Origin: a virus | Reading direction: 5' to 3' (one strand) | UHGV virus genome: UHGV-0213559 | Length of the DNA stretch: 43,138 nt | Shown: in pieces, positions 6,677-32,978 of the stretch | Layout: each line of letters starts with the position of its first letter | Position numbering within the stretch: position 1 is the first letter of the stretch | The notes under the pieces: generated by a model | The model's database searches: none | The model's input: the letters and a program-made list of their open reading frames with translations, nothing else | Told to the model about the DNA's origin: nothing | Made by a program: the position numbers and the translations under genes

Positions 6677-7429
6677 ATGGCAGTATCTGACGAGACCCGC
6701 AGCGGCGATCTTGCCGAAACATTCAAATCTGAACGGGAAACAACAAAGAACCAGATCCGTGTCGCCCTGCCTGGCATTATTCAGTCATTCGATCCTGATG
6801 CGGTGACGGCAGTTGTGCTGCCTGCTATCCGTTCGGTTGAAAAGGATAATGACGGCAAGCGCATTACCAAAAATTACCCATTGCTGGTGGATGTGCCAGT
6901 GGTATTCCCGCGTGGCGGAGGCTGTACGTTGACTTTTCCGGTAAAAGCTGGGGATGAGTGTCTTGTCGTTTTTGCCGATCGTTGTATTGATTTCTGGTGG
7001 CAGAGCGGCGGGATACAGGAGCCGGTTGATGACAGAATGCATGATTTATCGGATGCGTTTTGTATTGTCGGTCCCCAGTCGCAGGCGAGGAAGATTAGCG
7101 GTATTAATACCAGTGCCACACAGTTGCGTAGTGACGACGGCAGCACCTATTTTGAGCTTAATCCTGATACCAGGAAAATTAAAATTGTCGCTCCGGGGGG
7201 GCTTGATGTGGTTGCCCCCCTGGCTGATTTTTCTGAGAAAGTAACCATTCATGGCCTGTTAACCTGGATGGGTGGCATGGTGGGGTCTGTTGTTTCTGGT
7301 GTGGCTTCAAAAATCACTGGTGCTGTTGAGTTCTTGGGGAGCGTGAAGGCTAACGGCAAGCCAATCGATGATACGCACACTCATGGTGGTGTTCAGCGCG
7401 GTGGAAGCAATACCGACGGAGTAAACTGA
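6677..7429 (+). CDS. baseplate spike / assembly protein (gpV / Mu gp45-like)
   Basis: 250-aa ORF after the hub in a V-W-J-I gene order; assignment by order and size. Confidence 0.5.
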   Translation: MAVSDETRSGDLAETFKSERETTKNQIRVALPGIIQSFDPDAVTAVVLPAIRSVEKDNDGKRITKNYPLLVDVPVVFPRGGGCTLTFPVKAGDECLVVFADRCIDFWWQSGGIQEPVDDRMHDLSDAFCIVGPQSQARKISGINTSATQLRSDDGSTYFELNPDTRKIKIVAPGGLDVVAPLADFSEKVTIHGLLTWMGGMVGSVVSGVASKITGAVEFLGSVKANGKPIDDTHTHGGVQRGGSNTDGVN

Positions 7430-13733: not shown

Positions 13734-15131
13734 ATGCCGCGCACTGTAACACATAATCCGGATAGCCCCAATAATGACGATGTTTTAGCCGCATCCGAAA
13801 AATGGGACGCCTGTAAACCCCCCTATACCAGCGCACACATGAAAATCTGTGTTGCTGCCGCCAAAATCATCCTCGCTGCTTCCGGCGTGGCTCGCCGTTC
13901 CAAATACGAAAAAGAGAACTATCTCCGTATCGATTTCAGCAAAGCCGGTAAGGTTACATTTTACGCCGAGTTTCCAAAAAAGATGGGCCTCAAAGGTAAA
14001 AAGCTCGGCGAGTGGCCGGAGCTCGCTATCCAGCTGGCGCGCGAAAAAGCGCTAGGTATGGCTGACGGTGGCCTGCGGGCAGAGTCCGTACATGCAGCGC
14101 TGGAAATGTACCGGGATGACCTCAAAGCCAAAGTCGCCCGGCAGAAGCTGAGCCCGGACAGTTTCACAACCTACGGGGTGCGTATCGACCGGATTAAAGC
14201 AACGTTCGGCGAGCGCGAGGTGTTCAGCGACGTAACATACAATCGGCTGGTGGAAGTGCTGGACGAGTGGATCGCCACTCGCTCGAACAATAACGCCCTG
14301 GAGTTGTTTGCCGAGCTCCGTCGGTTCTGGAAGTTCTGTGCACCTACTCTTTGCAACGGCCGCAATGTTGCCGCCAGTCTGCCAGATGATTATGTTTCCT
14401 CCCGCGTACAGAAACCTACCCCCACACGGCTTTTTACCGATATTGAATCAATCGCCCGACTCTGGCTCAATGTTGCTGCCTGCACCTCTGTACACCAGAA
14501 GAATGCTGTTCGCTTCATGATCATCACTGGCGTTCGTCCGATTAATGTCCATAACCTGCGCTGGGACTACGTTCACGAGGAGGCTGGTGAAATTGTTTAT
14601 CCGGAAGGGGTTATCGGCATGCGAGGGGCTATGAAAACACAAAAGGCTTTCCGCCTGCCGATAACACCTGAGATCCGGCGGATTATCGACGAGCAGAAAG
14701 CCTGGCGTGATTCAGTTCCTGAGTGCAACAGGGATTATGTATTTTTGCAGCCACGTGATCCAATGCAGCCATTTTCAAAACGATCACTGGATAAGCTGGT
14801 GAAAACATACAGCCCGGACGGGGCTGTAAAAGGAATAAAACATGATGGGACTGTTAAAGGGAAAGACGGTGCATTTAATACGATGTGCCGTAAATTCCTT
14901 AAGAGCAATGTTATTGCCTTGATGAAGGAAAGAGGCTATTCCCGATCAGACCGAAGGGAAATCAGCCTCCTTTGCCTTCACCACTCCAGCAAGTCAGATG
15001 ACCCGATGGCAGAACATTACGACTTTTCTGATGAGATTTTGCAGGAAGAGATTGCGTTAAAGCGCGAAGCTTTCGAGGCTCACGAGCGGAGCATACTTGC
15101 GCAGGTTGCATTGCTACGGCGGCGAGGTTAA
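13734..15131 (+). CDS. int: tyrosine integrase (P4-like family)
   Basis: 465 aa from ATG 13734 with AAGGA SD (ORF track starts at TTG 13728); length, composition and position next to an AlpA-like gene fit a phage integrase. Confidence 0.75.
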   Translation: MPRTVTHNPDSPNNDDVLAASEKWDACKPPYTSAHMKICVAAAKIILAASGVARRSKYEKENYLRIDFSKAGKVTFYAEFPKKMGLKGKKLGEWPELAIQLAREKALGMADGGLRAESVHAALEMYRDDLKAKVARQKLSPDSFTTYGVRIDRIKATFGEREVFSDVTYNRLVEVLDEWIATRSNNNALELFAELRRFWKFCAPTLCNGRNVAASLPDDYVSSRVQKPTPTRLFTDIESIARLWLNVAACTSVHQKNAVRFMIITGVRPINVHNLRWDYVHEEAGEIVYPEGVIGMRGAMKTQKAFRLPITPEIRRIIDEQKAWRDSVPECNRDYVFLQPRDPMQPFSKRSLDKLVKTYSPDGAVKGIKHDGTVKGKDGAFNTMCRKFLKSNVIALMKERGYSRSDRREISLLCLHHSSKSDDPMAEHYDFSDEILQEEIALKREAFEAHERSILAQVALLRRRG

Positions 15132-15328
15132 TACTGGCTGCGACACTTTTGAATAAAAGCGTCGACATTTCGGCGCTCATAACGAACTACTTTTGCACTG
15201 AAACGAATTGGTCCCAGGATAGCCCGATGACGATGCTTAATATTCCACTCACATAGCGTTTTCTGTGTAATACCTAACTTTTGGCATACTTCATCCGGGG
15301 TGAGTAAATCGTCGGGTTTCTCGCTCAT
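15128..15328 (-). CDS. xis: AlpA-family excisionase / DNA-binding regulator
   Basis: 66 aa from internal ATG (MSEKPDDLLTPDEVCQKLGITQKTLCEW...); helix-turn-helix-like; its start overlaps the stop of the upstream helicase gene. Confidence 0.55.
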   Translation of the reverse strand: MSEKPDDLLTPDEVCQKLGITQKTLCEWNIKHRHRAILGPIRFSAKVVRYERRNVDAFIQKCRSQY

Positions 15329-16722
15329 GCTATACCTCTCTTTTTCATGGCATCGAGCAGGATGTCCTGCACTGTTCGTTTTGAGTTGCGCCGCTCCATC
15401 ACCATTTCGTCCATAGTGTCGGCGGCAATAATGTGGTGAATGAACACCGGGCGGTTGTGTCCGGCCTGAATCTGCCGGGTTGGCCCGATGCGTTCGATAA
15501 TTTGTTGGTACTGCTCCAGATCCCACCAGTGCGAGAAAAACACCAGTATGTTTCCGCCGTCCTGCATGTTCAGGCCGTGGCCCGCGCTGGCTGGGTGTGC
15601 AAAGAGAACAGGAATCTTTCCGGAATTCCAGTCGCGCAGTGTCTGTGGATCCTGGTCGAGGTGACGACTGCGAGGGAATGCTTTAAGCAAGCGTTCAAGA
15701 TCGTGTTTCCAGTGATAAGCAACCAGCACAGGTGCGCCAGCTGCTTCGGTCAGTATGCTGTCCAGCGCCTGTAGTTTGGTGTCATGCAGTTCTGACCAAC
15801 TTCCGGTGTCGTCTGTGTATACTGCGCCACTGGCGATTTGAAGACACTTCAGTGTCTTTGCCGCGGCGTTCGGTGCTTCGATGCCTTCGCCATTCAGCTC
15901 GAGGAACATTTCCTTTTCCATTTCACGATACTGCTGACGGGCCTTCGGCGGCATATCCACGCGGATTACGTTATGGATGGGGTCTTTGATATCGAACCAG
16001 TCGGCCGCATCCAGCGAGAGGGTCACATCGGCTAACGCTCGCTGTATTTCAGCCTGTGAGTGAGCAAACGGCTCCAGTTTGGTCCAGCTCTGCCCCGGAA
16101 ACTGTATCGAGTTGAACCAGCGTGAGGTAAACGCGCCGTAAGTGCGCCCGAGACGTTGTCCCTGGTCCACAAACCACGATTGTCCCCACAAATCTACCAG
16201 GCCGTTCGGTGCTGGCGTACCGGTGAGATTTATCCAGCGCCGGACATACTTATGCGCCACTTTGCCCAGCGCCGCCGCGCGCTTACCACCACCTCGCAGC
16301 CGGAAGGATTTTAGCCGGGTGCTTTCATCCGGAATGACAGTACCGAACGGCCATCGTTCTCCCAATTCCTCAACCAGCCAGACAAGGTTATCGTAGTTGA
16401 TTGTGAACACGCTCGCGTTGCTGTTCGCCAGCGCTGTAGAGCGCGCTTTGGCGTTACCGATGATCGGCTGTACCTCAATATTACGCAGATGCCCCCATTT
16501 AACAGCTTCATCAGGCCAGGTGCTTGCTGCAACGCGTAGCGGCGCGAGGACCAGCGCGGGGCGTGTTTCTGTTCCAGCCATGAAAAGATCTTCCAGCGTG
16601 GTGAGTGTCGCTACGGTTTTACCCATTCCCATACCTGCCCAGATGTTGCAGCGCATAATGTCGACTTGATGATTGATGATGAGATCTTGGTAGGGGTGAG
16701 GTGAAAATATAGCATAGTCCAT
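15325..16722 (-). CDS. SNF2/DEAD-like superfamily 2 helicase
   Basis: Walker A GMGMGKT and motif II DEST visible in the translated ORF. Confidence 0.7.
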   Translation of the reverse strand: MDYAIFSPHPYQDLIINHQVDIMRCNIWAGMGMGKTVATLTTLEDLFMAGTETRPALVLAPLRVAASTWPDEAVKWGHLRNIEVQPIIGNAKARSTALANSNASVFTINYDNLVWLVEELGERWPFGTVIPDESTRLKSFRLRGGGKRAAALGKVAHKYVRRWINLTGTPAPNGLVDLWGQSWFVDQGQRLGRTYGAFTSRWFNSIQFPGQSWTKLEPFAHSQAEIQRALADVTLSLDAADWFDIKDPIHNVIRVDMPPKARQQYREMEKEMFLELNGEGIEAPNAAAKTLKCLQIASGAVYTDDTGSWSELHDTKLQALDSILTEAAGAPVLVAYHWKHDLERLLKAFPRSRHLDQDPQTLRDWNSGKIPVLFAHPASAGHGLNMQDGGNILVFFSHWWDLEQYQQIIERIGPTRQIQAGHNRPVFIHHIIAADTMDEMVMERRNSKRTVQDILLDAMKKRGIA

Positions 16723-16789
16723 GGTATTGTATCTCCATGAATGAACTTATGTAGTAATAGCTTAATTATTTATTTCGAAAGGAACAGTT

Positions 16790-17668
16790 ATGACCTCAGC
16801 TTATACAGATGTACAGCAAGAAGAAAATATTACTGATAAATTAGTTGTTAAATATGATGGTCCCGCACTAGCAGATCATAAAATAGATTTGGATGTTTTA
16901 ACTGAGTCATTGAATGGACTAAACAACTTGCTTAAAGAAGTTAATTTGGTTGTCAATGGCACTAGTGAGTGTATTAATGTTGAGGTTGAGCCTTTTAAGG
17001 AAGGCTCATTTGAGTATTTGATTGATGTTATTCAAAATCCACTTGACCATTTGAATATATTAAGCATTATTGGGCTTGGAGGTACAACTGCACTCGCAGC
17101 AGGAAATACTCTCATTGACTTAATTCGTCAGATCAATGGTAGGCAAATAAAACGGTTGACTTTAACAGCGGAAGGAGACTGTAAAATAGTTATGGATGAT
17201 GGTGAGGAAATTATAGCCCCGTCATATTTCCGACCTTTACTTGCCTCACCAAGCATACGCAAATCCTTATCGAAGTTAATTCATAAACCTTTGCAAAAGG
17301 AAGGATACGAATCGCTTAAAATTTCAACTCAACAGGGGGTTGAGCTGATTAAGGTGCACGAAGATAATATTGAACCGTTCAGATATAGGCGCGTTCCTGT
17401 AGTGCAGTCCTTGTCTGAAAGGGTGATTGAAGAGGCTCTAATCACATTTTTGACTATTCATAAGGATAAAAACACAGGCTGGCGAGTCAACTATGGCGAT
17501 GACACAATCAGCGTGTCTATAGAAGATACTGAGTTCTTACAACGTGTTAGTACGGGAAGAGAACCTGGTGTTTTTAGTGATGCTTACTTCGTTGATTTGC
17601 TCGTCCGTGAGAACTTGAATTCGCTGGACAAAACGTACATAGTTGTTAAAGTACACGGCATCTTATAG
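16790..17668 (+). CDS. hypothetical protein (292 aa), first gene of an AT-rich plus-strand cassette
   Basis: AAGGA SD 7 nt upstream of the ATG; no recognisable catalytic motif; opposite in orientation to the flanking replication operon. Confidence 0.5.
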   Translation: MTSAYTDVQQEENITDKLVVKYDGPALADHKIDLDVLTESLNGLNNLLKEVNLVVNGTSECINVEVEPFKEGSFEYLIDVIQNPLDHLNILSIIGLGGTTALAAGNTLIDLIRQINGRQIKRLTLTAEGDCKIVMDDGEEIIAPSYFRPLLASPSIRKSLSKLIHKPLQKEGYESLKISTQQGVELIKVHEDNIEPFRYRRVPVVQSLSERVIEEALITFLTIHKDKNTGWRVNYGDDTISVSIEDTEFLQRVSTGREPGVFSDAYFVDLLVRENLNSLDKTYIVVKVHGIL

Positions 17669-17691
17669 TAGATTCACATGGGGAGGGGGCT

Positions 17692-17940
17692 ATGATTGCT
17701 TTTGCTTTTTGGCTGGCTTTTTTTAGCCTGCTTCCCGTACTATATTGGGTTCTTAAGATGGGGTTTGACCGGTTACGCTTTGCGCTTATGCCTAAACATC
17801 ATCTTGTTCTTGAATGTGTTGACTCAGAAGGAGTTGTCCGTCGCGATGTCGTTGATGTCTCCTCTGATGATGAATTTTACAAAATTGCAATGAATGCCAT
17901 TCGTGCTGGAAGATCAGTCAAAGGAGGGACGTTTGAGTAG
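17692..17940 (+). CDS. small membrane protein (82 aa)
   Basis: N-terminal hydrophobic helix (IAFAFWLAFFSLLPVLYWVL); 23 nt downstream of the 292-aa gene. Confidence 0.4.
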   Translation: MIAFAFWLAFFSLLPVLYWVLKMGFDRLRFALMPKHHLVLECVDSEGVVRRDVVDVSSDDEFYKIAMNAIRAGRSVKGGTFE

Positions 17941-18463
17941 CGCTTCTAAACCTGATAGCTACGAAAAAGTCCCTCTGATTTCTAATGTTGCTGCTGGTGG
18001 CATCATTGGTTTTTTAACATTACTGGTGTCCTCGTGGGACGGTCGTTTTCCGTATATTGGTTCTGATTTAAATACAATAAAGCCATTTCTTTTATTAATG
18101 CTTCCCAGTTGCGCTATGTTTCTGGCGCATTGGATAAAGTCGATTGGGTTTAAATGGTCCTTAGGTAGCGTTAATCGACAGTTATTAAGCATTAATAAGA
18201 AGAAAGAAAAAGAACTTCGCCGTGATATTGAAAAGTACAAAAATGTTATTTCTAATGAAAAGATAGAGGACTTTAAAAGTCAACTTGAACAAGTATTACA
18301 AGATCGTCATGATATTATTTCTAATAATTACGCACAGAAACTAAGAGAAAGAAATTATACGCAAGAAAAATATCATGAGCATAAACAAACCGCTGCAAAT
18401 GATAATATTGAGCTGCAAAGCATACTGGAGAATCAGAAGTTCAATCAAAAAGGCATTGACTAA
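17933..18463 (+). CDS. membrane protein with charged coiled-coil-like C-terminus (about 176 aa)
   Basis: strong AAGGAGGG SD 5 nt before an in-frame TTG at 17933 (ORF track starts at ATG 17894); two hydrophobic segments then a Lys/Glu-rich tail. Confidence 0.4.
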   Translation: MSSASKPDSYEKVPLISNVAAGGIIGFLTLLVSSWDGRFPYIGSDLNTIKPFLLLMLPSCAMFLAHWIKSIGFKWSLGSVNRQLLSINKKKEKELRRDIEKYKNVISNEKIEDFKSQLEQVLQDRHDIISNNYAQKLRERNYTQEKYHEHKQTAANDNIELQSILENQKFNQKGID

Positions 18464-18467
18464 ATTT

Positions 18468-18737
18468 TTATAATATCCTCTCTAGGTTCTTGCTATCCAG
18501 CACCACTACGGTAAAGCCCAGTTTTCGCAGACGTTCATGTTCGCGCAATTGGTCAGGCCGTGGTGGCTTGCCGGGAGATTTACATTCAACGAAAACGATA
18601 CGACCACCTGGTAGCAGGACAATGCGATCCGGTACCGAGCGGTGACCGGGAGATACAAACTTAAAGGCCACTCCGCCAGCTTTTTTCACTTCAGCGACGA
18701 GATGCTTTTCGATAAGGCTTTCACGTTCATAGGCCAT
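18468..18737 (-). CDS. VRR-NUC domain nuclease
   Basis: PD-(D/E)xK-like signature ...PDRIVLL...VFVECKSPGK...; start taken at internal ATG (MAYERESL), ORF track extends to 18764. Confidence 0.55.
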   Translation of the reverse strand: MAYERESLIEKHLVAEVKKAGGVAFKFVSPGHRSVPDRIVLLPGGRIVFVECKSPGKPPRPDQLREHERLRKLGFTVVVLDSKNLERIL

Positions 18738-19026
18738 CTGAATCCCACTCTTCAAAAAGCACATTCAATTCCAGTTTCTCTGCCAACGCGTTTTCTGCAC
18801 GTGCGCCAGCAGAGTACTCCCACTCTTTGAGCATATAAATCGTATCGGCACAGCGAAGCATTGCGAGGCAGATGTCCATATACTGAGCCTGTGTCAAACC
18901 ATTGGGTAAAGTTGCGGGGTTAAGCACAACATATCCCTTGTCCGTTAGCCTCTTTGCTGCGGAATGAAAAGCCGGGCGGTTAAATTGCTCGTAACCGCTC
19001 ATCGGCCCGGCAACGTAAACGATCAT
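18727..19026 (-). CDS. DUF4406 / nucleoside 2-deoxyribosyltransferase-like protein
   Basis: N-terminal MIVYVAGPMSG resembles the Rossmann-like start of that family (from memory). Confidence 0.4.
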   Translation of the reverse strand: MIVYVAGPMSGYEQFNRPAFHSAAKRLTDKGYVVLNPATLPNGLTQAQYMDICLAMLRCADTIYMLKEWEYSAGARAENALAEKLELNVLFEEWDSDGL

Positions 19027-19238
19027 TCTTCGACCGCCTTACGCTTTTCACGCATATTCTGCATCAGGCAAAAATCAGATCTGCGTTCACTCCATTCCTG
19101 ATTCAGTTCGTGATGTGATTCGCGGTTGGCTTTTGCCCAGACCTTCGCTGCCCGGTCATATTCGCCGGATTGTTCAAGTCGCAAAGCCTCCCTTGCAGCC
19201 CTGTAATAAAGTGGATTGTCCCGGTATTTAAATGACAT
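19023..19238 (-). CDS. hypothetical small protein (71 aa)
   Basis: ORF-track ORF coupled to its neighbours in the leftward operon. Confidence 0.4.
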   Translation of the reverse strand: MSFKYRDNPLYYRAAREALRLEQSGEYDRAAKVWAKANRESHHELNQEWSERRSDFCLMQNMREKRKAVEE

Positions 19239-19243
19239 AGGAG

Positions 19244-21307
19244 TTAATCCTTACGGTAGTGGTACGCCTCAAAACCGCCAGCGTTCAGTGGGATATCGGG
19301 CGCCCATTCGGGGTTAGTGGAGAGAAGCGCGGAAAGCGCTTTATCGTTGAAATCTTCTGTGTCAGGTGCTTCGGTGATCACCTCGTCGTGTACCGTCAGC
19401 ACAATGCTGTAACCGGCATCTTCGATAAGCGGCATGTTTCCGGCCAGAACGTCGCGGGCGGCCGCCTGGGTGACGTTCTCTACCAGCTTTCCGCCGTAGG
19501 TTTTGAGTCGTTGCCATTTACGCGAATAAGAGTTAACACCCATATAGGTGATATCCCCTTTTTCGATAATCGGAGACGGGTAGCATACAGCGCGTCCGGA
19601 TGGTAGCTGTATGCGCAGCCACGCACCATCGCGGCGGATTTTAAGATAACCGCAATACAATGTTTTTTGCGGTGTGGCGATTGCAGTGCGGACGGTGCGC
19701 TCCAGTTCGTACCAGAAATCACAGGTCGCGGGATGCGCCCGGCGCCAGAGACGTTTAAGTGAGTCGCAGGCGATAAATACCCGTTCAGAAAGCCCGTAGG
19801 TTGACTTGCGTTTAACCGATTCGTCGTACCAGCTTTTCGCCTCGCGGATAACATCGCGGGGAATGTTTGGTAGTGCGGCGTTCGCCAGCTCGTCGAGATC
19901 GAGACCGTAAACCAGTGCAAAAGTGATGAAGGCCGACACACCACCACCATAACCCAGACCGAGTTCCATGACTTTACCGATCTGACGCATGTGTTTATCA
20001 ACATCATCTGGTGCAATATCGAAAGCTTTTGCATACGCCAGTTTATATAAGTCCGGACCCGTTCCGGCGTCGTACTCTCTGAATGCATTCAGTTTCCATT
20101 CTTCTCCCGCCAGCCATGCCAGCATACGGCCTTCAATGTTCGACAAGTCACTTACCACCAGCTTTTTGCCTGTTGGCGCGATAATGCAGCCACGTAACGC
20201 TGAACTGGTTAGTTCCATGATATTGTCAAACAGCAGGTCTGCACATCCGGCTTTCAGTGCTTCGATGCCTTCGTCTATTTGTTCCTGTTTTAGTGAAGGG
20301 CGGGGAAGGTTCTGGGGCTGGAATAGCCGTCCGGCCCAACGACCGGTACGTGACGCCCCGCAGAACTGTAGCGTACCGCGTAAGCGCCCGTCGTGGCTTA
20401 CGCCTTTCATCAGTGCCTTGTATTTACTGGTGCTGGTAGTACTGGCCTGCAGGCGGATAGCCAGCAGTTCTTTCACGGCAGATGGTAAATCGGGGTCGGC
20501 AATACGACGTTCCAGAGTACTGCGTTGCATGTCTGGTAGCTCCACACCGTAGGATTCAACAATGTGCTTAATCAACGCGTCTCGTTGTGTGGCTGCCTGC
20601 ACTTCGCCATCAGTCATTTCCTGTGTACGCTTTGCCAGGCGCTTTTGTTCCTGGTCTACCGCGTCGATCGCAGCGCGTGCGAGTTCCACGTCCATGCAGA
20701 CGCCCCGGTCATTGATCTGCTGATCACGATGCCAGAGCGCCAGTTCTGTCCCCTGATAATTCCACTTCGGCAGACGTTTATAGACTTCGCGCATTGCCTC
20801 GATATCCAGTCCGGCGTAAGCAACAAAGCGCCGCCATTCTTCCGGGTGGGTTTTGCTGGTGGCCCGGCGCAGTTTGCTGTTTTTCGGGCGTGGTTTACAG
20901 AACAGCTGGATCAGCGCTTTACCTTCTTTGTCCTTCGCTTTGTCTTGCGGGACGCCTAGTACTTCGCAGAGTTCCCCCAGAGACCCCGGGAGACCGTGCG
21001 CCAGCGCCTGCACCATTGTGTCGCGCCAACGTTCGACTGGCGGTGCCAGGCGCGGCATTGCATAACGCAGGACGGTGCGGTCGAAGTGAGAGTTATGAAA
21101 ATAAAGCAGGGTTTCAGGGGCTGCGATTGCTTCGTATAAGCCGTGTGGAATACCACTACCGGCAGTGATATCCCACACGTTTACGGGCCCGTCGTTGATA
21201 GCCCATGCGAACAGCATCACTTCAACGCCTTCGGCATACGCATGGGTACCGTTCGTAATAGGGATTTCGCAATAGGTTTCTAGGTCACCCCATAGTATAT
21301 TGGACAT
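19244..21307 (-). CDS. family A DNA polymerase (phage type)
   Basis: motif A-like DLSNIEGR, motif B-like [16 protein letters not shown], motif C-like VHDE; 687 aa. Confidence 0.75.
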
Positions 21308-21363
21308 AAAATAACCTTGTGTGATATATGGTTATGTAGGTGTAAATAAACAAGGAGACGGCG

Positions 21364-21633
21364 GTGTTTAGCTTTGGTATCGGAATACTTTCATTGATAG
21401 GTATTATTGCTTTCCCCATTCTTTATATTTTAGGGAGAATAGTTCGGGCTGGTGGCGCATGGCTCGAACGTGAAGAAGGTCCTAAGGATCGTGTTCTTCC
21501 CAAAATTATAATTTTTGCGCTTATTGGGTTCTTTCTTGGGTGTTTGGCTCAGCCTGTATGGGACAGCATTTCGGCATGTAGAGACTATGGCAATCCAATA
21601 GGGAAATGTCTTTTTAAATTCAATGAATTTTAA
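21364..21633 (+). CDS. small two-helix membrane protein (89 aa), cargo gene
   Basis: GTG start with AAGGAG SD 7 nt upstream; two hydrophobic helices; opposite strand to the surrounding operon; hairpin plus T-run downstream. Confidence 0.45.
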   Translation: MFSFGIGILSLIGIIAFPILYILGRIVRAGGAWLEREEGPKDRVLPKIIIFALIGFFLGCLAQPVWDSISACRDYGNPIGKCLFKFNEF

Positions 21634-21700
21634 TTTTTAGTATTGCGGTAGGCTGGTTTGGATAACTATTTTCTTAAGCCAGCCTTTGTTATAAGAAATA

Positions 21701-22339
21701 TTAAGCATCTACCCCTTCGTCAGAAGGGAGGCCGATCATTTCGTTGAGAGTTTCGCGTCGTATAGCTGGCGGAAGCGGAGCAGATGGTGCATCGGCTGGC
21801 AGAAGTTCTTTAGCTTCAGGCCACTCTTCCAGCAGGCGCTTAACTGTGCGCACTTTACTGAGTGCAGCGCTGACATTCTGTCGAATGTCTGACTCATCGC
21901 TCTGTATCTGCTCATAAAGTGCATCAAACCCGTAAAACTCTGTAACTAGAGGGTCATTTGCCAGAAGGGTAAATGTCCCCGGCGCGATTTTGTGAATATG
22001 GTCTGGTGACCCTGATTCATATCCTCGATAGTTACCGTTGAAATAGACGGTAACCCGAGAACCTGCCAGATTCAGACACATGTAACACTCTTTCCTGATA
22101 ATATTATTGGCGGTTTTTAATGCTTCGGGGAATTTTGATACCAGTGTTTCTATTTTTTTTATAATTTTTAATATTTCAGCTTCTTTCTCTACGCCCCCGA
22201 TAGCTGCAAGCCGAACACGTTCGGCCCATTCAACACGAGCAGCTCGTAGTGCTGATTTACGTTTGGGGATACACGCTTTCTCAAGTGCGTTATTGATGAT
22301 TTGAGTTTTAAGGTGATTAGTTAATACGGGCTGTGACAT
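21701..22339 (-). CDS. hypothetical phage protein (212 aa)
   Basis: start taken at ATG 22339 with GAGGGA SD (ORF track extends to 22369). Confidence 0.45.
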   Translation of the reverse strand: MSQPVLTNHLKTQIINNALEKACIPKRKSALRAARVEWAERVRLAAIGGVEKEAEILKIIKKIETLVSKFPEALKTANNIIRKECYMCLNLAGSRVTVYFNGNYRGYESGSPDHIHKIAPGTFTLLANDPLVTEFYGFDALYEQIQSDESDIRQNVSAALSKVRTVKRLLEEWPEAKELLPADAPSAPLPPAIRRETLNEMIGLPSDEGVDA

Positions 22340-22390
22340 TATTCTTTCCCTCATGAGATACCCCAGCACGTAGCTGGGGGATGAATATTT

Positions 22391-22939
22391 TTAAATTAGT
22401 GCTTCAGCATCAGCACCTTCGCTGATATCGTCGAAATCGTCAGCGCTTGCCACTCCGCCGCCAGCAAATGCATCGCCGTCTCGCAGGAACTGGACTCCGC
22501 CGAGTGAGGCATTAATGCGTTTACCGAAATTATTGTCCTGTGCCCAGATATCGATAACGGCGTTTACATAGCACCCTGCATAGGGACGTCCATCAGCCTG
22601 AATTAGTGGCGAACGATCGCGATCAAGAACAGCTGGGCGCGCTTTGTTAGCAGCATTCAGGAAGAAATTGCCGGGGAAGCCTTCATACTCTGCTTTTTCA
22701 TCACCATCATGCAGGCACAGATTGAGTTTTTTCTCCAGCTGGTTATAAATGGGCTCCCACTTCTCTCCCCATTTTTCCTTCGCTACCTGCTTCATAGCTT
22801 TACGGATTTCTTCCAGTTGTGGGTGTTTGGGAGACATTAAAAATACTGCGGAGAAACGCGGATCGCCTTCGCCGTTTACAGTTTTAGCTTCAAACAGAGA
22901 CGGGAAGGCCAGACGAACATTGTTCAGCTTCAGTTTCAT
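22391..22939 (-). CDS. DUF2815-like phage protein (possible ssDNA-binding)
   Basis: N-terminus MKLKLNNVRLAFPSLF typical of that family (from memory); sits next to a DUF2800-like gene. Confidence 0.55.
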   Translation of the reverse strand: MKLKLNNVRLAFPSLFEAKTVNGEGDPRFSAVFLMSPKHPQLEEIRKAMKQVAKEKWGEKWEPIYNQLEKKLNLCLHDGDEKAEYEGFPGNFFLNAANKARPAVLDRDRSPLIQADGRPYAGCYVNAVIDIWAQDNNFGKRINASLGGVQFLRDGDAFAGGGVASADDFDDISEGADAEALI

Positions 22940-22954
22940 GGGTATTTCCTTAAA

Positions 22955-24256
22955 TCAGATGAGGTCTGCGGTTAGCGTATCGTCGGATACGTCGTCGAAA
23001 TCATTTACAGGGTTGATATTGAGTGCGGGGCGTGGGTCTGACTCGGGAACGACGGTTGGTTTACCATCAGCTCGTGTTATCAGTGCCTCGACTTTTGACC
23101 AACGGCGTGGACTGGCCTTTTTGATAAGTTTTTCGGCTTTTGTGGGACTAATAAGTTTAAAGTCGAATACTTCTTCAGTTTTGTACCTGAACTGGTCCTT
23201 CAGAAGTGCGCGAGCTGCCTCTTCATCACTCCAGGCCCGGTTACCTTGTTTTCCTGTTACCAGTTTAAACCCCGGTACCGGATGTCCGGCATTGAGTTCA
23301 TTGTGAACCCGGTCCCGTACTGCCTTTAGCCAGGACTCAATAAAGTCGGCCTGGCTATAGATCTTCGCAAGCTGCTCAATGGTTAACAGAGGTACACGTG
23401 CGCTGGCATTGGTGATTATTTCGCTGACAGGCTTTGTCAGATCTTCAAAGTCGCTGGCCGCTGTTTGTAAATGCTGCATTTTCTGGGCAGTGCAAATAGC
23501 TTTTGCTTTACAGAAGCGGCACTGTTTTTCTCCAGGTATGAAGTTTTCCAGCGGTAGTGTCTCAATGCCTTCGCATTCAGCAATATTGAGAACAAGGATC
23601 GCACTGGTTGCGGCCTCCTGTGCTCGTTTACCGAAAGACTGAAGTTCCTGCACGGTTAACGACCATTCTGAAACGTGGTTGAGCCTTGGCTGGTGAATAA
23701 ATAATCTTACAGTCTCAAAGTCATACAGCATGCTGAATTGTTCGAGCGCACCCAGAGCATACAGTTGTAGTTGCTCATTTTGTTCTGCATCAATGCGGAC
23801 GCCTTTGCCATATTTCAGGTCGTGGATTTGTAATTCGCTACCAGCAATGATTATGCCGTCGGCAGTTCCGAAAGATTCTTCCACACCCGTTATATGTGAG
23901 AAATCAACACGTTGTTCAACCAATAGTTCATTATTCTGTGCAAGAGTCCAGACCGTATCAACATACCGGCCAACGGCTTCGACCATTTCATCATCCACCT
24001 GTGGGCCAGATGTATCATCAGGATTTTCGCGAAGGGGGTATGAGCCGAGAAACATAGAAACATTGCATCCGGCGTAGTGTTCCGGGTGGCTTTGCCTGTT
24101 TCGTAGAACTTTTTCAGCAAGCGCGTGCGCTGCAGTGCCCTCGATTGCAAAAGTTGTTTCTTTATCCGGTTGTGTGGCCTCCAGCGCCAGACTTCCTGGG
24201 CAGCGCATCCATCGATGCGCTGATGATGGAGAAAGTTGTGCATGAACGTCTGGCAT
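22955..24256 (-). CDS. DUF2800 / Cas4-like PD-(D/E)xK nuclease
   Basis: N-terminal [14 protein letters not shown] and C-terminal Cys cluster [10 protein letters not shown] (Fe-S-like). Confidence 0.6.
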
Positions 24257-24258
24257 GA

Positions 24259-25161
24259 TTAACCCTCCAGTGCTTTTTCAGCCAGGGTGATTACTTCAGC
24301 GAGATTTTCATCCGTTACTTCACCAAGTTTCCTGGCTCCCTGTTTTTCCAGAATTGCAATAGCTTCTGCCCGGTAACCCCCTTTTGCTAACTGGAGGATC
24401 AACCCTTCAGCTTGTTTGCGTAGTGCCGCGAAATCAATTGTATGGTCATCTTTGGCGTCATTATTCTGGCTGGAATTTGCTGCGTCTCTGCGTGCAAATT
24501 CTTCCTGCAGCTGAAGGTACTCAACACGGTTGATCTCGATATGGCCTTTTTTCAGCATCTCGTTCAACTTGCGTAAGGTGTGGAGTTCACTGGCTGCTGT
24601 GCCGGATACATTTTTGACGTAAAACGGCCCCGTGCGTTCTCCATCTTTGTTACTGGCCTTTTTCGGCTTAACTTCATCACGCCCATCCGCAGGTGCATCA
24701 AGTAGCTGCTCGGCAAAAGCACGTCGCTCGCCGATGGTTGGCAGGTCGTCCCAGAACTTAAGAATGTTACGGGACAGGTCCAGAAGAGCGGGTTTAAGCA
24801 GCGCCCTGGCTCGTTTGACGCCCTGCAATGCGCTGTCGAGAGCATCAATCTGAACTACTCGTTTATCGCCTTCAGCATCACGGTAGGCAACAGCACGTTG
24901 CAGCATGTCTTCTGTGATAGGGGTGGCTACCGGGTAGAAACCAGCCAGTGCGATAACGTCGCTGAACTCCAGATCATCCAGTGTCATTGCCGCTGACATA
25001 TTTTCAGTTTCAGTTGCTGTATCCCGACATTCCTGCACTCGTGAAATCGTGTCAGGATGCATAACAATACCTGATGCCATTGTGCGGATAAGACGTTCAA
25101 GCAGCGCATTATGTTGTGCCAGAAGTTGATTATTAAGTTCGAGACTGGTTTCTAAACTCAT
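24259..25161 (-). CDS. hypothetical phage protein (300 aa)
   Basis: ORF-track ORF in the leftward early operon, coupled to the small upstream ORF. Confidence 0.45.
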
Positions 25162-25307
25162 ACTGTGGTCCTCGCTACAAGGAGAATGAAAGTGATGATC
25201 AGACCGAGCGCAGTGGCAACGGCCAGACCGGTCATCAAATCGAAGTTTTTACGGCGATAACGGAGAACATCGCGCCCCGTCAGTCGATAGAGGTGTTCAG
25301 GTTTCAT
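25158..25307 (-). CDS. small tail-anchored membrane protein (49 aa)
   Basis: not in the ORF track (under 60 aa); translated by hand as [49 protein letters not shown]; its TGA overlaps the ATG of the downstream gene. Confidence 0.3.
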   Translation of the reverse strand: MKPEHLYRLTGRDVLRYRRKNFDLMTGLAVATALGLIITFILLVARTTV

Positions 25308-26633: not shown

Positions 26634-26640
26634 GGTTTTA

Positions 26641-26722
26641 CCCTCATATAGTTTAGTTAGCTTAACTTAATCAGGGTATCGCTTTCTTGACTTATGGGTT
26701 TAGTTTTCTTAACCTCATATAA
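26641..26722. promoter_or_regulatory. candidate right operator/promoter (OR) region between cI and cro
   Basis: two 14-bp repeats TTAGTTnnCTTAAC (26653-26666, 26700-26713), each flanked by CCTCATATA; AGTTA-GCT-TAACT is palindromic. Confidence 0.4.
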
Positions 26723-26746
26723 CCATATATTTCCTGGGTAACGGTT

Positions 26747-26929
26747 ATGAAAAAAGCAGAAGCAATTGAGCTTGCAGGAAGTAAAGCGAAACTAGCGAGA
26801 CTATTGAAGGTTTCCAAAGGAGCCGTATCTCAATGGGGGGAGGAAATCCCAGAGCTAAGAGCTCTTCAACTTGAAAAAATTTTGGAGCAAAAAAATGTAG
26901 TCAAACAAAAAGGCGTAACCCATGTCTGA
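26747..26929 (+). CDS. cro: Cro-like HTH regulator
   Basis: 60-aa HTH protein divergent from cI; its 3' end overlaps the primase start. Confidence 0.6.
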   Translation: MKKAEAIELAGSKAKLARLLKVSKGAVSQWGEEIPELRALQLEKILEQKNVVKQKGVTHV

Positions 26930-29183
26930 TAACAAACCATGGGGAGCTACGCCCGATGAGTGGTTCCACTTCGATCTGGTGTTGGGGATGACAGACAGGC
27001 TTTTACCTGTGGTGTCCAATCCCTGTGCAGAACTGTCGCCTAATAGCAAGCTGTCTCATAATTTCGGCAAAACTCCCAGTCGCTACAATGGCCAACGTAA
27101 GGTTGTTGGTATCCCCGACTGGGCTAACTATGTTGTTACGGAAAACGATTTTGCCCGGTGGTCGAACGAACCCGATTACGGTATTTGCGTTCGTACTGGC
27201 GACGGGGTGGTGGCTCTGGACTGCGATATCAATGACGCCGGGATGCAGGAGATCGTTCGCAATATTATCCTGTCATGCCTGGGGGAACTTCCGCCACGTC
27301 GCTGGCGGGCTGACAGTCATAAATGCCTGTACCTGATTGCTGTTGATGGCGACTACCGTAAACGTGGTCACCGCCTGGAAGGCGAAAACAAACAAATAGA
27401 GCTGCTCGCTAAGGGCCAGCAGTTTGTGGCTTGTGGTACCCATCCGGCAGGCGAACGTATTCAGTGGGACTGCGGTTTGCCCGGCGAACCTCTGAAAATT
27501 ACATCTGAACAGCTCGAAAGCCTGTGGCAGCGTCTGGCGGATAACTTACCCGTGAAAGACAGCTATACCGCAGGTGCGGGACGTCAGCGTGACCTTTCCT
27601 GTGTTGATCCTTCCGCGACAGATGATGTCGCCGACTGGCTTGACGCGAACGGGTGGACTCTGTCAGTCAGCTCTGATGGTTCCCGCAATCTGAAACCGTT
27701 TCGGGATGAGTCAGAATACAGCAACGGTTGCAGCGAAACATCCATTAAGTATTTCCCAAAAGGGACGGGGGGATTTGAACAGGGACATTTTAAAAGCATG
27801 CACAACACCGATGCGGGGCTTACTGATGCCGACTGGCTGGAAGGCTACGGCTATACGCAATCCCTGTTCGAAGATCTCACGGTGGCTGAAGATGGCGATA
27901 AGCCTGAATTTACCGATATTAATACAGATATGACAGCTCATTTTCTGGAACGCTTTATCTACGTCATCGAGGGTGACCAGGTATGTGATCTTAGCCGACC
28001 GCCATATCAGTGCATGATGGATATGAAGTCGTTCAAAAACCTGATGGCGCCTTACCAGTTCCCGCCAGAAGGGAAAGGGCAACCAACTCCCGCAACCAAA
28101 CGGTGGATAGAGCATCGGCATAAGAAGATTGCTGAGACGACAGGCTATAAGCCCGGTGCGGGACGTATTATCGAGCGTTTCGACGGGCGGTTTGAGATAA
28201 ACGAATTTTATATGCCTGAGCATCCACGTACAGCGGATACAAGTAAGGTGTCCACGTTCCTTAATCATATGGCGTATCTGGTACCTGATGCCTGGCAGCG
28301 CGAGTTTTTCATCGCCCGTCTGGGGTGGATGGTTCAGCGTCCGGAGCGTCGATGCCCGATTTCTATTCTGCATGTGGCTACCGCACATGGTACGGGCAGA
28401 GGATGGGTCAGCCAGTTAATGGAGCGCGTGCTTGGTCCGTGGAACTGTGCTCGTACTCGCATGAAGATCCTGTGCGATAACCAGTTCCATGACTATCTGT
28501 ACAATACGCTTCTATGCACCATTGACGAGGTGCGCGAAAACGATAAGCGGTATGAGGTGAACGATAAAATCCGCGATGTGCTGACAGAACCACGGTTTGA
28601 AGTGAACCGCAAATATGGCAGTAAAAAAACGATGGATATATACACTGGCTTTCTGTTCTACACCAATCACTTTGATGCGCTGGCGCTGCCAGAGGAAGAC
28701 CGACGTATCGCTGTGCTGGGGGGCCCTGACTTCGCCGCAACTGAAGAGCATTACGCCAGCCTGTATGGCGCGCTAAGCGACAGCGACTTTATAGCCCAGG
28801 TGTACTGGTATCTGATGGGCGTTGACCTGTCTCGCTTTAACTGGCAGCGCGCACCCGAGACGAAAGAACGTCTTCTGATGATTGAAAGCAATAAGAGCGA
28901 TGTGGAGGCTGCTCTTATTGAAATCCTGGATAATCCGCCTGTGCCAGCAATGACTTATCAACAAATTGTTAACGCAATACTGGCAGAAGCAGGAATGGAT
29001 GTAGAAATTAACCAGAAGCATATTACTCGCGTTTTGAAAGAAAGAACAAAACGTGAAGCAGTGAAACTAAAAGTGGACGGCATGACTGTTCGCATGTGGT
29101 TACTTGTAAAAAATACCGATTTCAGCAACGAAGAATTGCGTGAAATATATAAAAATTGCGAAATTTTGCAATCTGGATTGTAA
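26922..29183 (+). CDS. primase-helicase (primase-polymerase-like N-terminus, D5/P4-type NTPase C-terminus)
   Basis: 753-aa ORF directly followed by an iteron-rich origin-like region; family assignment from size, position and overall composition. Confidence 0.65.
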   Translation: MSDNKPWGATPDEWFHFDLVLGMTDRLLPVVSNPCAELSPNSKLSHNFGKTPSRYNGQRKVVGIPDWANYVVTENDFARWSNEPDYGICVRTGDGVVALDCDINDAGMQEIVRNIILSCLGELPPRRWRADSHKCLYLIAVDGDYRKRGHRLEGENKQIELLAKGQQFVACGTHPAGERIQWDCGLPGEPLKITSEQLESLWQRLADNLPVKDSYTAGAGRQRDLSCVDPSATDDVADWLDANGWTLSVSSDGSRNLKPFRDESEYSNGCSETSIKYFPKGTGGFEQGHFKSMHNTDAGLTDADWLEGYGYTQSLFEDLTVAEDGDKPEFTDINTDMTAHFLERFIYVIEGDQVCDLSRPPYQCMMDMKSFKNLMAPYQFPPEGKGQPTPATKRWIEHRHKKIAETTGYKPGAGRIIERFDGRFEINEFYMPEHPRTADTSKVSTFLNHMAYLVPDAWQREFFIARLGWMVQRPERRCPISILHVATAHGTGRGWVSQLMERVLGPWNCARTRMKILCDNQFHDYLYNTLLCTIDEVRENDKRYEVNDKIRDVLTEPRFEVNRKYGSKKTMDIYTGFLFYTNHFDALALPEEDRRIAVLGGPDFAATEEHYASLYGALSDSDFIAQVYWYLMGVDLSRFNWQRAPETKERLLMIESNKSDVEAALIEILDNPPVPAMTYQQIVNAILAEAGMDVEINQKHITRVLKERTKREAVKLKVDGMTVRMWLLVKNTDFSNEELREIYKNCEILQSGL

Positions 29184-29480
29184 AAAGGTGGCAGTAAGGT
29201 GGCAGATAAACGACTAACTGCCACTAGGTAAAGATCAATTAAATCAATTGGAAGCGGTGAAAAGGTGGCAGGTGGCAATAGAATTTAAAACTATATACGC
29301 GAGAACTTATATTTTATGTATTATGCGATCTCTTATGTATATAGAACTAAAACTATCTGCCACCCGCCACCCAAATAGCCCGACACCTTACGTGGCGTGC
29401 GTTTCAGGAGGTGGCAGATAGCTATTTAAGTGCCACTTAACTGCCACCCGGAAATTAACTTGCAAATATTTGCAAATAAC
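29184..29480. repeat. iteron cluster / candidate replication origin
   Basis: at least eight copies of GGTGGCAG or its complement CTGCCACC in both orientations (e.g. 29187-29194, 29198-29205, 29264-29271, 29357-29364, 29410-29417, 29441-29449) around an AT-rich core. Confidence 0.55.
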
Positions 29481-29497
29481 TAGCTGGAGTAAACAAC

Positions 29498-29728
29498 ATG
29501 AAAGTTTCAGGATTAAAAAATCATATCGACGGAAATAACGAAATTACCTGCCCACGCTGCGCTAGTAACAGCGTGTTTATTCGCGATGTCGCCATGCGAG
29601 CGCATAAACACGACAAAACGGTAGTTATTGACCTCGGCTGCTCTGTTTGCGACGACAATTTCCAGCTTGTGTTATCTGACGGGCCAAACGTCAGTGTTAG
29701 CGGCCACCTGACATTCAACGAGTATTGA
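29498..29728 (+). CDS. zinc-finger small protein (76 aa)
   Basis: CPRC ... CSVC cysteine pairs; lies between the origin and the Q-like gene. Confidence 0.4.
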   Translation: MKVSGLKNHIDGNNEITCPRCASNSVFIRDVAMRAHKHDKTVVIDLGCSVCDDNFQLVLSDGPNVSVSGHLTFNEY

Positions 29729-29773
29729 GTAGTAGAAAATTTCCAAACGTAGCAAAACGTAGAGGTCAGAGCT

Positions 29774-30196
29774 ATGCGTAATATTCAACAGGTTTTAGAG
29801 CGCTGGGGTGGCTGGGCAGCGAGTGAAGGTGGTAGCGTCTACTTTCCTCCTGTTGCAGCCGGGTTTAAGAATCTGCTACCCGCGACGCAGTCTGGCAGGC
29901 TGAAATGCAGTGACAATGACGGTCTTATCATCAACTCCGCTATGAGCTGCCTGAAGAAAAAAGATCCGTATCTGTGCACGCTCCTTGAGTGGCATTACGT
30001 CCAGGCCATGCCCGTGCGGGCGATGGGTGAGAAGCTCGGCGTATCTCACACCCACATTCTGAAGAGGCTTCAGGCGGCAGAGGGATTTATTGACGGTTGC
30101 TTAGCCATGCTGGATGTGGTGCTCGAAATGGATCAGTCGGTTCAGTCAAAGCCTCAGGCTATCAGGACTTTGCGTAGGAGCTGCTCGGCGGCATAA
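29774..30196 (+). CDS. Q: Q-like late antiterminator
   Basis: N-terminus MRNIQQVLERWGGWAA... resembles lambdoid Q proteins of the phage 21 / 933W type (from memory); positioned upstream of the lysis cassette. Confidence 0.65.
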   Translation: MRNIQQVLERWGGWAASEGGSVYFPPVAAGFKNLLPATQSGRLKCSDNDGLIINSAMSCLKKKDPYLCTLLEWHYVQAMPVRAMGEKLGVSHTHILKRLQAAEGFIDGCLAMLDVVLEMDQSVQSKPQAIRTLRRSCSAA

Positions 30197-32405: not shown

Positions 32406-32978
32406 ATGACTAAGAAGCTGAAAGCAAAACACGAGGTGTTTTGTCGCGAGTTTCTTGTCGATCTGAATGCTACACAAGCAGCTATTCGCGCAGGCTATGC
32501 CTCCAGGCGAGCACATGTTACGGGGGCTGAACTATATGGTAAACCTGAGATACGCGCCCGCATTAACGAGCTAAAGCAGGAGCGTATTGATCAACTGGGC
32601 ATTGATGCGAATTATGTGCTAATGCGACTGGTTGAGATCGACAGGCTCGATGTGGCTGACATCCTGGAGGACGATTTAAGTATTAAGCCTCTGTCTGCGT
32701 GGCCAGAATCGTGGCGTCGGTACCTGAGTGGATTTAACCTCGCTGAAATGTTTGAGGGGCGAGGAGATGACAGAGAAATGGTCGGGCTCCTTAAAAAGAT
32801 TAAGTGGCCTGATAAGGTTAAAAACCTTGAGTTGCTTGGGCGCCATGTTTCTGTTCAGGCGTTTAAAGACAACGTCAAAAATGAAGTGACTGGCGCTGAT
32901 GGAGGACCAGTCAGAACAGAAATTACCAACTTAACGCCGGAGCAGGCTGCAGAGGCGTATAGAAAAATGATGGGGTGA
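32406..32978 (+). CDS. terS: terminase small subunit
   Basis: 190-aa ORF immediately upstream of the large terminase; N-terminal HTH-like segment. Confidence 0.6.
   Translation: MTKKLKAKHEVFCREFLVDLNATQAAIRAGYASRRAHVTGAELYGKPEIRARINELKQERIDQLGIDANYVLMRLVEIDRLDVADILEDDLSIKPLSAWPESWRRYLSGFNLAEMFEGRGDDREMVGLLKKIKWPDKVKNLELLGRHVSVQAFKDNVKNEVTGADGGPVRTEITNLTPEQAAEAYRKMMG

Follow-up and report, generated by a model that had tools for sequence, protein, structure and literature searches.

In the lambdoid phages (lambda, phi80, 82 and P22), the types of O protein and ori are known to differ in such a way that the DNA-binding part of the initiator and the iterons co-vary and are exchanged together. 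The lambda ori lies inside the O gene and within the pR operon, where it is crossed by transcription, and O recruits host DnaB via P. Another kind of origin has been described for the SaPI elements, where the C-terminal winged helix of the Rep protein binds 6-12 iterons directly after rep, split round an AT-rich centre and opposite in orientation on each side (PMC9371898). The same work gives a model with one hexamer per side, and it describes the fusion of primase and helicase in SaPI5 as well as Rep/ori pairs that are element-specific. A further type, the Eru10 replication region of Stx phages, has nothing but a Prim-Pol (PF09250) protein and Q in the stretch that runs from cI to the late region or stx (Fagerlund et al. 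2022, PMC8951638); Eru10 is defined there by gene content alone, and no origin, iterons or specificity types are described. Here we analyse a 43,138-bp stretch of DNA, UHGV virus genome UHGV-0213559 (the whole of which we call the window), containing a prophage whose primase-helicase gene is followed directly by an array of short repeats. Taking together the arrangement of these repeats and their comparison with related loci, we consider it likely that positions 29187-29448 are the replication origin of the prophage, of a dyad-symmetric iteron type and served in cis by the gene just upstream.

The primase-helicase gene (26922-29183, plus strand), identified by Pfam, a PDB match, PHROG and RefSeq annotation, encodes a predicted initiator of 753 amino acids (aa). 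Its stop codon is at 29181-29183, and the 314 bp that separate it from an open reading frame (ORF) of 76 aa are non-coding (29184-29497). The first repeat begins at 29187, directly 3' of the ORF, where the initial annotation of this DNA had placed the repeat region. Eight exact copies of the word GGTGGCAG or its complement are present in the window and six of these fall within the 262 bp from 29187 to 29448; the chance expectation over the whole window is 1.37, and none of 100 shuffles gave eight. Outside the array the word occurs exactly at only two isolated positions, 6996 and 9078, both of them in host genes. When one mismatch to GGTGGCAG is allowed the gap holds nine sites, and a tenth (29430-29437, GTGCCACT), with two mismatches, occupies a slot that is filled in all relatives, which brings the array to ten related 8-bp sites, six exact, three with one mismatch and one with two. 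The annotated "at least eight copies in both orientations" is thus right with one mismatch allowed and too high for exact copies.

From left to right, the array consists of an outer triplet at 29187-29194 (plus, GGTGGCAG), 29198-29205 (plus, GGTGGCAG) and 29218-29225 (minus, AGTGGCAG), an inner pair with a one-base overlap at 29264-29271 (plus, GGTGGCAG) and 29271-29278 (plus, GGTGGCAA), an AT-rich core, a right inner pair at 29357-29364 and 29364-29371 (both minus, GGTGGCAG and GGTGGCGG), and a right outer triplet at 29410-29417 (plus, GGTGGCAG), 29430-29437 (minus, AGTGGCAC) and 29441-29448 (minus, GGTGGCAG). Arithmetic on these positions gives five mirror pairs with a common centre at 29317.5, and a search for inverted repeats reported two large ones, I1 and I2; since all of the mirror pairs share this centre, the whole region is one imperfect dyad. 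The dyad centre, 29317/29318, falls in the AT-rich core (29279-29356), a predicted DNA-unwinding element with a GC content of 23-27% across 29280-29359. Nearest-neighbour energies rank 29282-29351 as the least stable of all 70-mers in the prophage part and as the third in the whole window, 3.3 standard deviations above the mean, so that both base composition and duplex stability confirm the AT-rich core reported earlier. Two boxes within the core, CTATATACGCGAGA at 29291-29304 and TATGTATATAGAAC at 29334-29347 (inverted repeat I2), are partial mirrors of each other (CTATATAC / GTATATAG) and are conserved, being the same across iteron types in a core alignment of 20 loci with six words; these inner boxes are candidates for contacts with a conserved part of the protein, or for the start of melting or priming.

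Some further features of the region can be recorded here. The dyad symmetry is broken by a G+C-rich block between the right inner and right outer iterons (29372-29409, …CCTTACGTGGCGTGCGTTTCAGGA), the left counterpart of which (29226-29256) is AT-rich, and the block is kept in relatives at the E. coli/Salmonella level whatever their iteron type. An ORF of 57 aa (29248-29421) that runs across the AT-rich core and several iterons carries no RefSeq annotation and was treated as spurious. No DnaA boxes occur in the repeat region, their window-wide counts being at chance level, and an Rfam scan of 28900-29900 returned no RNA family except for one chance-level match inside Q.

To follow the array through evolution, relatives were drawn from 45 E. 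coli genomes, four phages of the vB_EcoM-6xx series, other genera in GTDB genomes, IMG/VR and the contigs of database homologues. In about 30 related loci, ranging from 99% down to 56% protein identity, the spacing of the ten sites relative to the stop codon is almost unchanged. The slots, in nucleotides (nt) after the stop, are +4, +15 and -35 for the left outer triplet and +81 and +88 for the left inner pair, followed by -174, -181, +228, -248 and -259, and they recur in most of 18 loci that carry six words between them (seven counting GGTGGCAC of L043); at L034 and L037 the layout is shifted by ~25 nt, with fewer recognisable copies, and these two loci were left out of further comparison. 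What differs between loci is the word itself, which is changed at all ten sites together, with nine words overall, counting those added by L096-L105. The window shares GGTGGCAG with L004, L007 and others, and GGTGACGG is found in L001, L006, L023 and others. GGTAACAG occurs in L003, L005, Serratia (L009/L010) and Arsenophonus (L098), GGTGACAG in Izhakiella (L008) and L028, GGTGTCAG in L027 and L096, GGTTGCAG in L042 and L102, and GGTAGCAG in L097. At greater distances, a Limnobaculum locus (L099, 47% protein identity) has TGACACAG, and an Avibacterium locus (L100, 36% identity) has a GGTGGC core in a recognisably similar layout. Judged from these sequences, the concerted replacement of a word at ten positions cannot be put down to neutral drift, and because the change is concerted at ten separate sites a common sequence-specific reader would be required.

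A still more distant counterpart, which also favours an origin, is found on pW47-1 (L106, NZ_CP104987.1), an 8.9-kb circular plasmid of Proteus mirabilis, where a gene for a DUF5906 protein 28% identical to aa 341-753 has CGGTTACAA repeats downstream of it (6720-6988 of the plasmid) in the same outer/inner mirror layout, so that a relative of the gene/repeat pair resides on a small autonomous replicon. The plasmid also has a gene annotated as tape measure protein and is possibly a small phage-like element. Copy number varies at two loci, L097 and L098, which have 12-13 iteron copies, the extra ones, together with a duplicated unit of ~50 bp, lying 3' of the stop codon and ahead of the canonical ten-site array; L097 has one further copy ~390 nt downstream.

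By Pfam, the predicted initiator is made up of an AEP Prim-Pol domain (PF09250, aa 75-185) and an SF3-type helicase core (DUF5906, PF19263, aa 488-595, E 1e-13), with no Phage_rep_O or P domains. A PDB sequence search matched aa 456-659 to the helicase domain of the NrS-1 primase (6k9c, E 6e-8), and the PHROG match was 1156, 'DNA primase'; in a phmmer search of all PDB chains with the whole protein as query (E <= 1), the only matches were the NrS-1 primase and a spurious CagT, with no SaPI Rep. The C-terminal 114 aa (28839-29180, plus) are predicted to form a winged helix composed of H1, b1, H2, H3 (the recognition helix, NQKHITRVLKER), a b2-turn-b3 wing and a terminal helix. As a query of the C-terminal 113 aa alone gave 17 fragments of the same protein, useless for alignment, full-length matches were trimmed to their C-termini instead. 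An AlphaFold2 model of aa 640-753, based on an alignment of 21 sequences, has a mean pLDDT of 83.4 and shows helix, strand, helix, helix, strand-turn-strand and helix in that order, which is the winged-helix topology; the predicted winged helix extends over aa ~675-752, and its type-specific residues fall in the b2-turn-b3 wing (model residues 73-86).

It is in this wing that the relatives differ. Among E. coli-level relatives the protein is near-invariant over aa 1-700, with variation concentrated in aa 701-750, and in the close E. coli relatives perfect segregation with iteron type is seen in 11 alignment columns, every one of them within aa 712-725 (EAVKLKVDGMTVRM); these residues correspond to the wing hairpin (encoded at 29055-29096, plus), which is the predicted specificity determinant. 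Variants of the recognition helix (ITRVLKER vs ITKLLREK) show no correspondence with the word. In the DNA, iteron types diverge from one another by 0-0.06 over 2.1 kb of the gene and then by 0.10-0.38 across 29022-29492 (0.23-0.38 in seven of eight bins), the corresponding within-type divergence being 0.02-0.10; from this jump at 29022 it follows that the unit of exchange is a cassette of ~470 bp (29022-29492), consisting of the last ~160 nt of the gene and the origin. The initial annotation had pointed to the N-terminal primase domain as the iteron binder, a role predicted from these observations to belong to the C-terminal winged helix, with specificity in aa 712-725.

The pairing of wing and word was tabulated for 25 loci, and locus pairs were stratified by backbone identity. 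At a backbone identity of at least 90%, wings were 99% identical between loci with the same word and 47% identical between loci with different words; the respective values were 86% and 50% at 70-90% backbone identity and 44% and 36% at 50-70%. One wing, P(A/T)TxLVK...G(M/I)(G/A)YRFW, pairs with GGTAACAG in E. coli (97% identity), Serratia (68%) and Arsenophonus (64%). When words were predicted from the wing alone and the DNA was then checked, four of four predictions were correct: GGTTGCAG from the wing KTE in P0046, and GGTGGCAG both from the wing KKE in P0053 and P0050 and from the wing DAV with an ETVKLK strand (ETVKLK...DAV) in P0040. A common reader is suggested by the concerted change of the ten sites; that the wing is this reader we infer by exclusion of other candidates and from precedent.

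Layout and the tracking of word by wing thus lend strong comparative support to the initial annotation of an iteron origin with a DNA-unwinding element, used by the phage's own primase-helicase. Several points weigh against this interpretation. The winged helix is predicted, and the fold scores behind it are modest (Foldseek E >= 0.01). The relation between wing and word is weak at 50-70% backbone identity, GGTGGCAG is served by several wings, and the mapping from wing to word is many-to-one. The wing codons are only 90-390 bp from the iterons, and linkage alone could therefore produce co-variation by co-inheritance, without contact. Nothing is known about the replication of Eru phages according to PMC8951638, and the support offered here for the family is comparative rather than experimental. 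Finally, by analogy with P4, where the cluster right after the alpha gene is crr and not the start site, a second site might exist outside the window.

Among alternative functions, a transcriptional control element, acting as a roadblock or as an autoregulatory operator that times the late genes, survives best, and we regard it as unlikely. The array lies between the primase-helicase gene and Q in every examined locus with downstream sequence, sometimes without an ORF between, and rightward transcription must therefore cross it. A scan of the gap for sigma-70 promoters and intrinsic terminators, however, gave nothing above shuffles, a roadblock would need neither an AT-rich melting core nor a 5+5 mirror layout, and the same layout occurs on pW47-1, which has no Q gene. 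A transcriptional role could in any case coexist with origin function.

Marginally less probable again is that the array is an enhancer or loading site like crr, bound by the initiator, with synthesis starting at a second site in the prophage as in the ori/crr arrangement of P4. In P4 the origin is 4.5 kb away from the cluster, and the right-hand end of our prophage lies outside the window. The P4 crr, however, consists of two direct repeats of 120 bp, whereas the cluster studied here is a dyad whose centre falls in the least stable duplex of the prophage part; no second cluster is seen within the ~29 kb of visible prophage, the other exact copies of the word being the isolated ones in host genes, and SaPI origins of the same layout are complete origins (PMC9371898).

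We think it improbable that the array has another reader (CI, Cro, the small downstream ORF, Q or a host factor), with the tie to the helicase wing reflecting linkage only. Adjoining the iterons as they do, the wing codons would be co-inherited with them in any mosaic exchange. Yet each of the phage candidates is found, as an identical accession, with different words: L004 and L005 share repressor and Cro accessions and have GGTGGCAG and GGTAACAG respectively, the repressor, the Cro-like protein and the downstream ORF are all identical in L006 and L007, which have GGTGACGG and GGTGGCAG, and one Q protein (WP_001244506.1) accompanies two words. A host factor cannot account for nine words in Enterobacterales and three in E. 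coli alone, and in close relatives the wing is the only variable protein segment; it also forecast the word correctly at four new loci. Short repeated motifs facing both ways may also be borne by packaging (pac/cos), recombination (att) or partition sites, an alternative that can be set aside given that the small terminase gene is 3 kb distant, that the integrase lies at 13734 by the host junction and that the element is integrated, with no partition genes annotated.

For an origin read by the initiator, we propose the following course of events. The winged-helix domains would occupy the ten iterons, with the conserved recognition helix probably reading the invariant GGT..C.G and the wing, chiefly the three residues after the turn glycine, probably reading the variable positions 4, 5 and 7. 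Two SF3-type hexamers, one per half-origin, would then face each other head to head, and the AT-rich core would melt, aided by pR transcription crossing the origin toward Q; since this transcription must traverse the origin to reach Q, it might activate the origin in a lambda-like manner, and a roadblock on Q is conceivable too. The helicase would load itself, the AEP Prim-Pol domain would prime, and bidirectional extension would be carried out by the family-A DNA polymerase and the Enc34-type single-stranded DNA (ssDNA)-binding protein that the phage encodes. Specific binding of the iterons by the winged helix and self-loading without a loader are suggested indirectly, by the co-variation of wing and iterons and the four predictions. 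Wing and iterons would recombine as a unit of ~470 bp, giving related prophages different origin specificities.

A more tentative proposal, which we judge somewhat more apt to fail than to hold, is that of a compact code: bases 4, 5 and 7 of the 8-bp iteron would be specified by the three residues that follow the turn glycine and by the beta-strand ahead of them, and selection would move the cassette between prophages, Stx2b phages among them, thereby keeping co-resident relatives and satellites from firing each other's origins. As proposed, the code assigns MTV, LTV and DTV to GGC-A, FVY to GAC-G, IAQ to GAC-A, CTN and NTQ to GTC-A, xGY and xAY to AAC-A, and KTE to TGC-A as against KKE to GGC-A. 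If it is true, a few residues would be enough to reprogram origin specificity, and the 5+5 dyad would be a bacterial model of the assembly of double hexamers by SF3 helicases.

The element that carries the array is an integrated prophage. The window is a 100% match to the chromosome of E. coli TB06051, and positions 1 to ~13.5 kb are host genes (srmB, nadB, rpoE-rseABC, lepAB, rnc, era, recO, pdxJ, acpS, shoB and yfhL), after which the prophage starts with a tyrosine integrase (13734-15131) adjoining yfhL. The annotation had also been reminded of phage-plasmids, a comparison that fails: the integrase stands beside yfhL, all 45 of the E. coli matches are chromosomal, and there is no full-length homologue among 72,556 PLSDB plasmids. 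The immunity and replication region runs from a LexA-like CI repressor (minus) through Cro (plus), the Prim-Pol and DUF5906 helicase gene (plus) and the repeats to the 76-aa ORF, Q, the lysis genes and the terminase, of which the small subunit is at 32406, beyond the lysis genes. The cI-cro operators (26634-26746) were considered as kin of the iterons and show no resemblance to them or to the flanking palindromes described below. The 76-aa ORF (29498-29728) has a CxxC...CxxC pattern and no Pfam or PHROG match; elsewhere it is swapped for an unrelated 96-aa ORF or is missing, and it assorts independently of iteron type.

On the minus strand, a leftward early operon (15325-25307) holds a replication and repair set of its own, including an SNF2-related helicase (15325-16722), the family-A DNA polymerase (19244-21307), an Nmad5 'nucleotide modification' protein (21701-22339), the Enc34-type ssDNA-binding protein (22391-22939) and a DUF2800 PD-(D/E)XK nuclease (22955-24256), as well as VRR-NUC and DUF4406 genes. 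Such a set is unusual in an E. coli prophage of lambdoid organisation, and with it the phage therefore carries most of a replisome.

Two similar palindromes bracket the dyad almost symmetrically, at -154 and +150 from its centre, and occur nowhere else in the window. The right one, TTGCAAATATTTGCAA at 29460-29475, is present where the annotation had placed it, outside the iteron dyad. Its conservation is partial: in some relatives paired changes (TTGCAG...CTGCAA, TTGAAA...TTTCAA) leave a palindrome in place (TTGCAGAAAACTGCAA, TTGAAAATATTTTCAA), and in others there is none. The left one, the near-mirror TTGCGAAATTTTGCAA (29156-29171), lies in the last codons of the primase-helicase gene, where it encodes C-E-I-L-Q; the protein end C-E-x-L-Q is conserved, and this palindrome may reflect coding constraint only.

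Among the relatives, L007 (NZ_CP129348.1, E. coli STEC435) is a Stx2b-converting prophage in which Q is followed closely by tRNA-Arg and stxA2b/stxB2b, and its module is 97.7% identical in DNA to that of the window over the gene end and origin. Elsewhere (L002, E. coli CAU16175; L011, Erwinia tracheiphila; L020) a frameshifted or truncated initiator gene is accompanied by intact iterons, which suggests decaying prophages; the E. tracheiphila locus, a disrupted pseudogene, was excluded from the analysis. A sister family (L038, L047, L066 and L075 of IMG/VR; P0063-P0137) has a Prim-Pol N-terminus 60-97% identical over aa 1-330 and a C-terminal half of the VapE type (PF05272), and directly 3' of its genes are inverted iteron sets around an AT-rich core, with the word GGTTGAGTA nine times in L038 and GGTGGTTCC, GGTGGTCTAG and GTTGGTAC as other words. 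The primase domain has thus been shuffled between two helicase/origin systems.

The searchable literature yielded no description of this origin, of its fixed 5+5 dyad or of nine or more exchangeable specificities. The module is distributed among prophages of E. coli, Salmonella, Serratia, Xenorhabdus, Arsenophonus and Avibacterium and one Stx2b-converting prophage, and as phage replication increases the dosage of toxin genes it is of clinical relevance. For the Prim-Pol-only 'Eru10-like' module, our analysis supplies a concrete, testable origin and a predicted initiator-binding domain. The nine words on near-identical backbones are a natural data set for how the wing of a winged helix reads DNA, and a possible use lies in orthogonal pairs of origin and initiator.

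Of the systems already described, the Eru10 region can be compared in gene order. The window order (cI, cro, Prim-Pol/helicase, 76-aa ORF, Q) fits it and L007 has stx2b downstream of Q, so that the module appears Eru10-like by gene content. Unlike lambda O/P, the window origin is intergenic and the initiator is itself helicase and primase. The SV40 large T antigen and papillomavirus E1 are SF3 initiators that form head-to-head double hexamers on inverted short repeats by AT-rich or melting elements; these initiators belong to eukaryotic viruses and have no primase domain, and their origin-binding domain is of a different fold and N-terminal to the helicase.

The initial annotation had likened the replicon to P4, and the likeness holds in its logic, that is, in the helicase core and the downstream repeats, and breaks down in the primase, the C-terminal domain and the two-site design. 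Like the window protein, P4 alpha combines in one polypeptide a primase, an SF3-type helicase (DUF5906; E 2.5e-9 for P4) and a C-terminal winged-helix origin binder, and in its crr there are ten repeats of 8 bp, in both orientations, that start 46 bp past the alpha stop codon and have a word, GGTGAACA, that looks like GGTGACAG, GGTAACAG and GGTGGCAG of the window family. Alpha, however, has a Zn-ribbon (Zn_Ribbon_Prim) and Toprim (Toprim_3) primase in place of the AEP Prim-Pol (PF09250), and its C-terminus is the Pox_D5 origin-binding domain (PDB 1KA8), which the window protein is without. BLASTP (E 0.36), hhalign (probability 0.2%) and a PDB profile search, which retrieved nothing of relevance, led us to reject homology between the window C-terminus and this domain. 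P4 also needs two separated cis sites, ori and crr, the latter a tandem direct repeat, whereas the window has a single dyad cluster.

The closest functional match is SaPI Rep/PriRep, with which the window shares iterons 3' of the ORF, an AT-rich centre, opposite orientations and a predicted C-terminal winged helix. At least two oppositely oriented iterons per side of an AT-rich centre are the mark of self-loading helicase origins, and the window has five on each side. It differs from the SaPI case in that the host is Gram-negative, that the element is a complete prophage of lambdoid organisation and not a satellite, and that its iterons are of 8 bp in a fixed 5+5 mirror layout as opposed to 5-6 bp. 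The window protein would thus resemble SaPI Rep in its working, without demonstrated membership of the same family. The origin is of a kind already known and adds no new principle; it extends the self-loading helicase origin design of SaPI and P4 to full temperate phages of Gram-negative bacteria.

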